Of a stretch of DNA of 64,000 nt, positions 34,201 to 37,200 are shown piece after piece; the stretch's first letter is position 1; every line of letters starts with the position of its first letter. Both the position numbers and the translations under genes were made by a program. The notes under the pieces were generated by a model. It saw only the letters and a program-made list of their open reading frames with translations, did no database searches and was not told the origin of the DNA. Source of the stretch: Thermoanaerobaculia bacterium. Its GTDB lineage: Bacteria > Acidobacteriota > Thermoanaerobaculia > Multivoradales > UBA5704. Location: the NCBI GenBank assembly GCA_035556715.1, contig DATMER010000063.1, forward strand, positions 4,270-68,269, given 5' to 3'.

Positions 34201-37200
34201 GGGCCTCTGGATCAACCACGGCCGCGGCGAGCAGTGCCTGGAAATGCCCGGCCATGCGCCGGGCCGTGGCGGCATCGAAGAGGTCCAGGTTGTAGAGGAC
34301 GCTGCCCACCAGGCCCTCGGCGGTCTCGCTCAGGGCGAGGCGCAGGTCGAACTTGGTGGTGCCGGTGTCCGGGACCGCGGGGGTTGCGGTCACGCCCGGC
34401 AGCTCCAGGTCGTCCATGGGGGCGTTCTGGAGGATGAGCATGACCTGGAACAGCGGCGAGTGGGCCTGCGAGCGTTCGGGGTGCAGCTCCTCGACGAGCT
34501 TCTCGAAGGGGAGATCCTGGTGGGCGTAGGCGCCGAGGAGCGCCTCCCGGGTGCGCCCGAGGAGCCCGCGGAAGGCCGGATCGCCCGCCAGGTCGGCGCG
34601 CAGGACCAGGGTGTTCACGAAGAAGCCGATCAGCCTCTCGGTCTCGGCCCGGATCCGACCGGCGATGGGGGTGCCCACGGGCACGTCATCGCGGCTCGCG
34701 AGCCGTCCCAGAAGCGTCTGGAAGGCGGCGAGGAGGACCATGAACGAGGTCGCCCCCTGCTGCCGGGCGAGCTTCTGGATGCCTTCGCGCAGCGTCGAGG
34801 AGAGCGCCACCGGGAAGCGTCCGCCGCGCCCGCTCGGGACCGGCGGACGGGGCCGGTCGGCGGGCAGATCCAGCACCGGAGGAACGCCGGCCAGGTGGTC
34901 CCGCCACCATCCGAGCTGCCGCTCCAGCACCTCGCCGCGGAGCCACGTCCGCTGCCACGCGGCGAAGTCGGCGTACTGGACGGGCAGGTCCGCCAGTGGC
35001 GAACGCCGGTAGAGAGCGGTCAGCTCGCCCAGAAGCACGCCGATGGACCAACCGTCGGAGACGATGTGGTGCATGGAGAGGAGGAGCGTGTGGTCCTCCT
35101 CTGCCGCCTGGAGCAGCGCCGTCCGGAGCAGCGGTCCGCGGGAGAGATCGAACGGCCGCCGCGCATCCTCGCGGGCGAGCCGCGTCACCTCGTTCTCCGG
35201 CTCGGGGAGACCGCGCAGGTCGACGACCGGAAGCGAGAGGCAGGCCGGGCCGATCACCTGGAGGACCCTGGCCTCGGCGCCGCCGGTGACCGTGAAGGTC
35301 GTGCGCAGCGATTCGTGGCGCCGGACGATCTCTTTCAGGGCCCCGGCCAGAGCCGCGGTATCGAGCCGGCCGCGCAGACGGATGGCGGTGGGGAGATTGT
35401 AGGAGGCCCGGTCGGTGCCGAAGCGGTCCAGGAACCAGAGCCGCTCCTGGGCGAAGGAGGCCCGCAGCTCTCCGTCCCGGGGGACGGGCACGACGGGCGG
35501 CGCCTGGAGGTCGTTGCGCGCCGCCCCGATCCGCGCCGCGAGCCCGGCCAGGGTGGGCGCCTCGAACACGGCCCGCAGAGGCAGCTCGACGCCGAAGACC
35601 TCCCGCACGCGGGAGACGACCTGCGTTGCCAGGAGCGAGTGGCCGCCCAGCTCGAAGAAGCCGTCTCCTGATGCGACAGGTCCGCGCCTGAGCACTTCGG
35701 ACCAGATGCCGGCGAGCAGCTCCTCGACGGGAGAGAGCGGCGCCGCGGCGGCGGCCGGCTCCCGCTCCGGCTCGACGCGGGCGAGCGCCTTGCGGTCCAC
35801 CTTGCCGTTGGGAGTGAGCGGCAGGGCCGGCAGGACCGCGAAGGACGAAGGAACCATGTAGGCGGGGAGGCGGGACTCCAGCCAGACCCGCAAAACCCTG
35901 GGTAGAGCCCTCTCCCCAACGGGTAGGCCCGTCTCCCCAACGGGTAGAGGCCTCTCCCCTCTGGGTAGACCCCTGTCCCCATCGGGTAGAGCCTTGTCCC
36001 CACTGGGTAGAGCCGTCTCCCCAGCGGGTAGACCCCTCTCCCCGGCGGGTAGAGCCCTGTCCCCGATGGGTAGACCCCTGTCCCCGATGGGTAGACCACC
36101 GTCCCCAGTGGGTAGAGCCCTCTCCCCAGAGGGATGAGGGGCCACGAACGCCACGAGCCGCCGCTCCCCGCCCTCGCCGAGCGCCAGCACCACCGCCTCG
36201 CGCACGGCCGCGTGGGCGCAGAGCGCAACCTCGATCTCCCCCAGCTCGACGCGGAAGCCGCGCACCTTGACCTGGTGGTCGATGCGGCCCAGGAACTCCA
36301 GCTCGCCGGCCCCGTTCCAGCGCGCCAGGTCTCCCGTGCGGTAGACCCTCTCCCCTGCTCCGCCAAAGGGATCGGGAACGAACGACGCGGCCGTCAGGTC
36401 CGGCCGGTTCAGGTAGCCGCGCGCCAGGCCCTCGCCAGCCAGCAGCAGCTCACCCGGAACACCTACGGGGAGAGGGCGGAGCCCACGGTCCACCACGTAG
36501 GCCCGGGTCCCCGCGATGGGGACGCCGATCGTCGGCTCGCGGTCGGTGGCCCGCGGCACCAGCACGAAGGTCGAGTAGGTCGTGTCCTCCGAGGGGCCGT
36601 AGAGGTTGTAGACCCGCTCCACGTGAGGCAGCGCGTAGATGCGATCCACCAGGGCGCGCTTGAGCGGCTCGCCCGCCAGGTTGACCGTGCGCACCGACTC
36701 GGGCACGGCGCCCAGCCGCACCAGCTCGGCGATGGCCGAGGGGACTGTATTGATCAGCGTCACCTCGTCCCGGGCAGGCAGGTCCGGCAGGGAGAGCGCG
36801 TTGCCCGCCACGATCACCCGGCCGCCGCGGGCGAGAGGCAGGAACAGCTCGAACACGGAGAGGTCGAAGGTGATCGAGGTCGAGGCCAGGACGCCGGACA
36901 GCTCCTCGGCGCCGAACTCCCGCTCCGCCCAGGCCAGCAAGGCCGCGGCGCTCCGGTGCTCGATGGCCACGCCCTTGGGACGGCCCGTCGAGCCCGAGGT
37001 GTAGATGAGATACGCCAGGTCGCCGGGAGAGGCCAGGCCGGGCAGGCGGCCGTCGTCCTCCATCTCGGCATCCAGGAGGATCTCCCGGTCGACGACCACC
37101 GCGCAGCCGGCATCCTCCTGGATCAGGGCCAGACGCTCCGGGGGATATGCCGGATCGAGCGGCACGTAGACGCCGCCGGCCTTGAGGACCGCGAGCAGCC

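Follow-up and report, generated by a model that had tools for sequence, protein, structure and literature searches.

Two kinds of insertion into otherwise functional bacterial proteins are relevant to what follows. On the one side, clusters of repetitive extragenic palindromic (REP) sequences located within genes encode 43–82 amino acids in Thauera and Rickettsia conorii (Di Nocera et al. 2013; PMC3733652), and Rickettsia palindromic elements (RPE) are found in frame within Rickettsia genes (PMC10969869; also cited in PMC3733652). On the other, the adenylation (A) domains of nonribosomal peptide synthetases (NRPS) can be interrupted between their conserved cores A8 and A9: the categorisation paper PMC8341866 gives an A/M boundary motif L(V/A/I)(A/G)(Y/F)xxP for all a8–a9 interrupted A domains, and in TioS (PDB 5WMM) the inserted methyltransferase touches Asub alone, the catalytic states of the A domain being reported as compatible with such inserts (PMC10510592). 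The subject of the present analysis is a tract of eleven 21-bp units located between A8 and A9 in the fourth A domain of a large hybrid of NRPS and polyketide synthase (PKS), HWM91846.1, encoded in the window, i.e., the whole stretch of 64,000 nucleotides analysed (positions 4,270 to 68,269 of contig DATMER010000063.1, assembly GCA_035556715.1, from a Thermoanaerobaculia bacterium of the Acidobacteriota). We consider it likely that this tract is an in-frame array of a dispersed, REP/RPE-like DNA repeat, that the A domain tolerates it in a permissive loop, and that its translation product is a disordered passenger and not a designed spacer.

The host protein comprises, according to Pfam, six condensation–adenylation–thiolation (C-A-T) modules with an embedded sulfotransferase domain, followed by a terminal ketosynthase–acyltransferase–thiolation–thioesterase (KS-AT-T-TE) block; five further A domains are encoded by two NRPS genes upstream of the gene for this 7954-aa synthetase. 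The first, third and fourth A domains of the protein are designated here C1, C3 and C4, and "module 4" refers to the last of these. In C4 the array begins 3 amino acids past the strand LVAFVAP and the A8-to-A9 spacing amounts to 140 aa, compared with 62–71 aa in those eight A domains of the window that have no array and in which both motifs were matched (coordinates are collected in Table 1). Each unit consists of an 18-nt core forming an imperfect palindrome, GGGGA(G/C)A(G/C/A)GG(C/G)TCTACCC, and of a variable 3-nt spacer, the units being arranged head to tail; the pattern of the family may also be written GGGRASANGGSTCTMCCC-N3. Tandem Repeats Finder gives a period of 21, 11.0 copies and 81% matches over 35899-36128, with a higher-order period of 63 bp, and the core GGGGAGAGGGCTCTACCC occurs 11 times at ≤3 mismatches, always within the module-4 tract, against 0.34 occurrences expected from shuffles of the window. 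The encoded heptads follow the scheme (G/A/P)LPxG(D/E)x and the peptide reads ALPTGDG GLPIGDR GLPIGDR ALPAGER GLPAGET ALPSGDK ALPDGDR GLPRGER PLPVGET GLPVGER ALP..., two adjacent units (GLPIGDR GLPIGDR) being identical. An earlier note on this DNA had reported about eleven 21-bp repeats encoding heptads between A8 and A9, and the exact register and the spacing found here bear this out; its description of the repeats as near-perfect holds for the core, which is nearly invariant, but not for the spacer, which differs in almost every unit.

The codons in which the array is written are the first indication that what is conserved is DNA. Every unit reads G(C/G)T CTA CCC NNN GGG GA(C/G) A(G/C/A)G. 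Leucine is encoded by CTA in 11/11 units, a triplet used for 0.5% of the leucines (1711 codons) in the remainder of the three NRPS genes; likewise, arginine is AGG or AGA in 8/8 cases and alanine is GCT in 6/7, compared with 5.5% and 4.7%, respectively, elsewhere in these genes. The G+C content of third codon positions is 0.60 in the module-4 array and 0.50 in the module-1 array introduced below, against a background of 0.92. Furthermore, CTA, CCC and GGG display no synonymous variation across the units, whereas the fourth codon appears as 9 different triplets in 11 units, and, if this codon is excluded, the information content of the third positions is 1.69 bits versus 1.75 bits for the first and second positions. 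Since the third positions are as invariant as the other two, the tract is unlike coding sequence, for which protein-level selection combined with neutral drift predicts the reverse. The conserved entity is an 18-nt DNA word and the variable entity is a 3-nt spacer.

The same word is found outside coding sequence. A word-indexed protein search made with the repeat alone yielded a single match, a 132-aa "hypothetical protein" (P0121) that corresponds to an ORF (open reading frame) called over an intergenic 21-bp array (L083, 6001–6399; units of GGGRAGAGGGGTCTCCCC + 3 nt) lying between glgE and an AAA-ATPase gene in another Thermoanaerobaculia genome, so assigned from its GlgE cluster. A DNA pattern of two adjacent units detected four further arrays, of 3 to 11 units, in JGI metagenome contigs (L084–L087). 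All five arrays are intergenic, the last four being flanked by convincing ORFs. Three 18-mers, GGGGAGAGGGGTCTACCC, GGGGAGAGGGCTCTACCC and GGGGACAGGGCTCTACCC, are identical between the module-4 array and the intergenic ones, with a variable triplet after each; the per-position information profiles of the 11 coding and 33 intergenic units are correlated (r = 0.70, p = 4e-4), and a TAG stop in the frame of the window is present in 7/33 intergenic units, namely those reading GGGTAGAGGG. The synthetase and the neighbouring proteins HWM91844.1 and HWM91845.1 are all labelled "MAG TPA: Thermoanaerobaculia bacterium" (MAG, metagenome-assembled genome), and L084 encodes HWM94407.1, which belongs to the same NCBI accession series as the HWM91844-6 of the window, so that at least one intergenic array resides in the MAG of the synthetase. 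The identity of the 18-mers and the existence of intergenic arrays, one of them in the same MAG, therefore qualify the family as a dispersed DNA repeat of which the NRPS copy is an unusual genic member. The earlier note, in which the repeat was taken as a protein repeat, had overlooked both this family and the second array within the synthetase.

The P0121 ORF is itself a spurious product of gene calling, because the repeat family is open in most frames; P0130, P0132 and P0141 appear similar by protein sequence alone. Intergenic arrays of the 21-bp family can spawn spurious "hypothetical proteins", and genic arrays break the Pfam AMP-binding_C model, which is called in the array-free modules and goes uncalled in C1 and C4, both of which carry arrays. 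Contig L086 contains, at 8539-8694, a separate 21-bp (7-codon) tandem repeat, GAGGAGCTGCAGACCTCCAAC (EELQTSN-like), whose sequence is unrelated to the family.

A resemblance to the core is also found close to the array. The DNA encoding the A7 core of C4, GGGGAGAGGGTCTACC, equals the repeat core minus one base and includes the rare Arg codon AGG (0.00 expected in shuffles), a similarity that could reflect coincidence, local conversion or a seed sequence. Derivation of the unit from this A7-coding DNA (16/17 bases, one indel) was discarded as an account of how the family originated, since identical units form intergenic arrays in the same and in another genome.

As to the protein, the site of insertion corresponds closely to that of interrupted A domains. 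LVAFVAP in C4 and LVAYVAP in C1 fit the A/M boundary motif given in PMC8341866 and, with the module-4 array following LVAFVAP, the placement proposed in the earlier note is confirmed with greater precision. Over the insert region Pfam matches NRPS families only, so that no inserted domain comparable with those of interrupted A domains was detected; nor did any Pfam repeat family appear at E ≤ 1e-5 in either half of the protein, leaving the known tandem-repeat families unmatched. An AlphaFold2 model of aa 3960–4195, based on 100 homologues, has a pLDDT (the program's per-residue confidence) >90 in the Asub core and of 41–54 in the insert, which emerges, devoid of secondary structure, between strand 88–95 (LVAFVAPH) and helix 168–182 (LRVWLESRL). 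The view of the insert as a low-complexity segment instead of a domain is supported by these data, and the prediction yielded no ordered element of the sort that the earlier note had considered.

The loop that receives the array is of variable length in nature. A set of 177 homologous A8–A9 loops has a median spacing of 65 aa, with 166 of them in the range 55–74 and a low-complexity tail of up to 108, which indicates that the loop tolerates low-complexity growth; on the same scale the two arrays of the window correspond to about 135 and 122 aa, as converted from the C4 and C1 spacings. One folded insert was encountered among the 177 loops, a PilZ domain in Microcoleus proteins with a spacing of 170 aa. 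PilZ (PF07238) seemingly occupies the A8–A9 loop in P0379, which has this spacing and whose loop was inspected, and, by Pfam annotation alone, in P0384 and P0385; a PilZ-type interrupted A domain goes unmentioned in the accessible part of PMC8341866. The C4 adenylation domain probably still works, given that its A10 core (NGKVDR) is intact and that inserts of the TioS type are reported to be compatible with the catalytic states.

Searches for relatives of the repeat-bearing domain gave the following results. When the repeat alone was searched exhaustively with phmmer against 1.84 billion representatives, 608 matches resulted, and none of the best 149 of these contains A-domain or NRPS motifs; as functional homologues these best 149 of 608 were rejected, consisting of generic xLPxGEx heptads in eukaryotic proteins or of spurious GC-rich ORFs. 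With the C4 A domain as query, no orthologue was found in genome contigs, in a scan saturated by generic NRPS motifs whose best match was 59% identical. Nor was one found in the word-indexed protein database when either Asub together with the array or the A core served as query; the matches were mostly short fragments at ≤67% identity (full-length) to the query, although they proved of use for the survey of loop lengths.

The synthetase contains a second 21-bp array, more diverged than the first, at the same A8–A9 site of C1, where the spacing is 127 aa; Tandem Repeats Finder places it at 45442-45573 with 6.3 copies and 74% matches. Its unit, GGTGGAGAGGCTTCACCCGCG, aligns to that of module 4 at 16/22 positions with two indels, an alignment matched in quality by 13/2000 composition-preserving shuffles, and it is plausible that the module-1 array belongs to the same repeat family, whether as an older or as a different member. 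C3 and C4 are the closest pair of A domains (82–83% identity), C1 being their sister (70–74%), and since arrays are present in C1 and C4 and absent from C3, either two gains at one site or one loss are required. The DNA of the C3 loop, GGGGAGACCGGGCCGGCC (TCA GGG GAG ACC GGG CCG GCC GAG), resembles a single repeat unit, and one may speculate that it is a remnant or a homology "landing pad". The C4 insert is longer than C3 by exactly 11 units, an agreement that was rejected as coincidence, being the sum of three separate length differences.

The fact that two paralogous domains have been hit, and that the closest paralogue has a unit-like native sequence, provides the grounds for a bolder interpretation, namely that the 21-bp units constitute an undescribed, actively amplifying head-to-tail palindromic family of Thermoanaerobaculia that repeatedly colonises, or is preferentially retained at, NRPS A8–A9 loops. 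We hold this to be unlikely; were it true, the loop would in effect be pre-opened, and this could be a natural route by which "interrupted" A domains first gain insertable space.

The recurrence of the array in C1 is also among the observations that might be invoked in favor of a selected protein feature. The insert would then serve on Asub as a flexible spacer, as a tether or as a loop for docking, for instance in order to recruit a trans-acting tailoring enzyme or to tune the A–T motion; the earlier note had suggested a flexible spacer or docking element. Such a function would be in keeping with the location at the canonical a8–a9 interruption point (as defined in PMC8341866), with the presence of a second array at this same site in module 1 of the same protein, with a frame that is intact across the 7954-aa ORF and with the regularity of the Pro/Gly/charged heptads, which is typical of linkers, but against it stand the findings that only the residue specified by the DNA spacer varies freely, that units identical to those of the array, some with stops in this frame, form non-coding arrays, that C3 does without an insert despite its 82–83% identity to C4, that no other NRPS with the repeat is present among the best 149 of the 608 phmmer matches and that AlphaFold predicts no ordered element. 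Since synonymous and non-synonymous sites are equally conserved, some of the rarest codons of the gene are used and the same DNA units are intergenic elsewhere, the spacer or docking function is left without support as a selected protein feature, and we judge it improbable.

Conservation at the nucleotide level could instead betray a function of the nucleic acid itself. The core has the form GGGGAGA-GGGS-TCTACCC, with 7-bp arms and one G·A mismatch that is constant in all 11 units; full pairing of the arms is seen in the units of L083 (GGGGAGA...TCTCCCC) and in certain units of L086 (GGGTAGAG...CTCTACCC). Compensatory stem changes were looked for across the arrays and none proved consistent. 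The RNA fold of the coding-strand array has z = -2.4 relative to shuffles, 2/200 of which are as good. In Rfam 15 the window has no match at the gathering threshold, and L083–L085 and L087 have only chance-level matches away from the arrays. Hairpins and rare codons might slow the ribosomes between the Asub halves, thereby aiding co-translational folding of the megasynthase, or the units might be sites for a DNA- or RNA-binding protein: the nucleotide-level conservation, the 18-nt imperfect palindrome common to the intergenic arrays, the fold that surpasses shuffles and the extreme cluster of about 19 rare codons (CTA, AGG) would all fit. However, the constancy of the stem mismatch in 11/11 units with no consistent compensatory change, the modest z-score, the lack of an Rfam family match and the circumstance that nine other A domains of the window, C3 included, manage without an array render a role of this kind quite improbable.

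As far as the instability of the tract is concerned, the head-to-tail arrangement, the two identical adjacent units and the 63-bp higher-order period are signs of recent duplication, and the distribution of the arrays (in C1 and C4, none in C3) implies gain or loss among close paralogues. These features would suit a hypervariable, contingency-like tract whose copy number is altered by slippage so as to modulate the output of the synthetase among cells or strains. Of the three roles proposed in the earlier note, the slippage-prone hypervariable tract comes nearest to the evidence, in that the tract is a DNA repeat of slippage type, but it does not behave as a contingency locus: with a 21-bp unit (seven codons) internal to the ORF, a change of copy number cannot switch the frame. 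Moreover, the same 11 units are seen in two assemblies and the spacer differences between units lower the rates of slippage, so that contingency-like variation appears very unlikely.

The agreement between assemblies has a bearing also on the possibility that short-read assembly of the metagenome generated the array, or its copy number, as an artefact. The window is matched by the ENA contig ERZ27251540 k141_4497306, that is, the source is a metagenome contig of the k141 MEGAHIT type, and an array of 231 bp probably exceeds a typical short read. On the other hand, a copy of the synthetase on a 96-kb contig of a JGI/IMG assembly (P0281, 6981 aa) equals aa 974–7954 at 99.986% identity, free of gaps, and carries the identical 11-unit array, so that two assembly pipelines agree on the module-4 array; in addition, the spacer is distinct in nearly every unit, making 141-mers unique, the frame is preserved, and arrays of the family occur on other contigs too. 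Where the two assemblies may differ is module 1. The JGI gene call of P0281 begins at Met974, about 20 aa past the module-1 array (window about 45370-45620), and this start, which can be cited in favor of an artefact in that region, suggests a contig break, a frameshift or another array length there in the JGI assembly. Taken as an explanation of the tract, an assembly artefact is most unlikely.

The preferred interpretation, the in-frame dispersed repeat, starts from what has been established: how the array is built, that it is conserved as nucleotide sequence, that it belongs to the dispersed family, that its peptide is predicted to be disordered and that two assemblies agree. A 21-bp array would have arisen, or landed, in the surface loop of Asub between the LVAFVAP strand and the LRVWLESRL helix, a loop that naturally takes whole methyltransferase domains; it may have come there by transposition, by recombining with another array, or because a unit-like native sequence expanded locally. 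The array would then be translated as a segment of roughly 77 Gly/Pro/charged residues, predicted to be disordered and to project from Asub, clear of the catalytic core, and this peptide, if tolerance and neutrality are correctly presumed, would be a passenger and not a selected spacer. The module-4 array is stop-free in 5/6 frames, so that any whole number of units in almost any phase keeps the ORF open; the gene may well have survived because the period is seven codons, the units are free of stops in these five frames and the loop is structurally permissive.

Several considerations weigh against this interpretation. The arrays of C1 and C4 occupy exactly the same site and the P-x-G heptad is kept in both, which selection-driven retention could explain instead of tolerance. 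A low AlphaFold confidence does not prove disorder. Which way the transfer between intergenic and genic locations went is inferred from counts, five intergenic against one or two genic arrays; the family was sampled from the flanks of few contigs, and the scans of the contig collections are incomplete, the JGI copy of the window itself being missing from the matches of the pattern scan.

What emerges from this locus is that an apparently designed heptapeptide repeat can be the translated copy of a dispersed non-coding DNA repeat, and an uncharacterised 21-bp palindromic tandem-repeat family is flagged in the Acidobacteriota (Thermoanaerobaculia). For NRPS engineering it offers a natural case in which two A domains of one intact 7954-aa synthetase bear an insert of 56–77 aa that is predicted to be unstructured, and two inserts at the a8–a9 boundary support the loop as a general insertion-tolerant site.

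Two other features of the window are included in Table 1. The sulfotransferase domain of the synthetase is an in-line tailoring domain of an uncommon kind. An intergenic region contains 8 exact palindromic sites GGGAAAR-N4-TTTCCC, spaced 42 bp (once 21 bp) and alternating with CCGAAACGATCCCCGG-like segments (0 expected in shuffles); none of the 87 other loci contains the motif, nor does any Rfam family match it, and the sites may represent either another family of hairpin-forming tandem repeats or a series of binding sites for a regulator.

Table 1. Positions of the features discussed, in window coordinates
Feature	Position	Strand	Residues	Remarks
GDPD-family gene	14145-15683	+		
GGGAAAR-N4-TTTCCC sites	15768-16125			intergenic, between the GDPD-family and PfkB kinase genes
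PfkB kinase gene	16126-17202	+		
Host NRPS-PKS gene, HWM91846.1	24434..48298	-	7954 aa	ORF call
Sulfotransfer_3 domain (PF13469)	about 31580-32230	-	aa about 5357-5572	embedded between modules 5 and 6
A10 core NGKVDR of C4	35792..35809	-		catalytic Lys intact
A9 core LPAYMVP of C4	35849..35869	-	aa 4144	preceded by native helix LRVWLESR
Module-4 array	35897..36127	-	aa 4058-4134 (77 aa)	11 x 21 bp = 231 nt in exact register
LVAFVAP of C4	36137..36157	-	aa 4048-4054	last Asub beta-strand ahead of the insert
A8 core of C4	36230..36289	-	aa 4004	
A7 core of C4 (GERVYRTGD)	36340..36355	-		encoded by GGGGAGAGGGTCTACC
Array-free loop of C3	39131..39238	-		closest paralogue; LVAYVSGETGPAELRSWLESRLPAYMVP (SGETGPAE)
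Module-1 array	45437..45604	-	aa 899-954	8 heptads AxPxGxE, after LVAYVAPLPS in C1

When the locus is set against the described systems, the A8-M-A9 interrupted A domains (TioS A4, PDB 5WMM; PMC8341866, PMC10510592) have an identical insertion point, directly after the Asub strand L(V/A/I)(A/G)(Y/F)xxP and before the helix leading to A9. Their inserts, however, are folded catalytic domains of 290–390 aa (methyltransferases, or the epimerase of PchE), whereas here the insert is a 77-aa repeat, predicted to be disordered and without a domain signature; since there is no inserted domain, C4 with its array does not qualify functionally as an "interrupted A domain". Ordinary low-complexity expansions of the A8–A9 loop in other NRPSs (e.g., P0069 of Pyxidicoccus, P0043 of Herpetosiphonaceae and P0114) resemble the array in being rich in Gly, Pro, Ser and charged residues, in occupying the same loop and in being free of domains, but they reach spacings of up to 108 aa, as opposed to 135 and 122 here, are not regular tandem arrays and, unlike the module-4 array, have nothing to link them to a dispersed DNA repeat family.

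The REP/GTAG repeats (PMC3733652) resemble the units described here in being short, imperfectly palindromic and at times reiterated in tandem, and the 21-bp family may share with them a mainly extragenic location in multiple copies per genome; occasionally REPs too lie in ORFs, where their clusters add 43–82 aa and the gene is not destroyed. The core of the 21-bp family, with its 7-bp arms, agrees with the REP definition of a short (20–40 bp) imperfect palindrome with a stem of 5–13 bp, and 5/5 of the other arrays detected in the incomplete scans are intergenic, one of them in the same MAG. There are, nevertheless, differences. In REP families a head-to-tail arrangement is rare, whereas here it is strict, at a period of 21 bp; the terminal unpaired GTAG/CGTC tag of REPs has no equivalent, the GTAG of the antisense strand (GGGTAGAG) being inside the palindrome arm, at a place where L083 units have GGAG or GAAG; and no RAYT transposase (IS200/IS605-type Y1), the gene associated with REPs, was seen in the window, where Pfam assigned no transposase family to any of the 20 ORFs outside the NRPS genes. 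Furthermore, the host is here an NRPS of which two paralogous domains have been hit at one site. In view of the GTAG located inside the stem, of the strict head-to-tail order and of a RAYT not having been seen in the window, the 21-bp family is not a demonstrated REP. The RPE differ from it in being single elements of about 150 bp that encode a conserved peptide, as opposed to arrays of 21-bp units of unrelated sequence in a different phylum; what they have in common with it is palindromic DNA, selfish or neutral, whose translation gives an additional peptide at surface-compatible positions of otherwise functional proteins.

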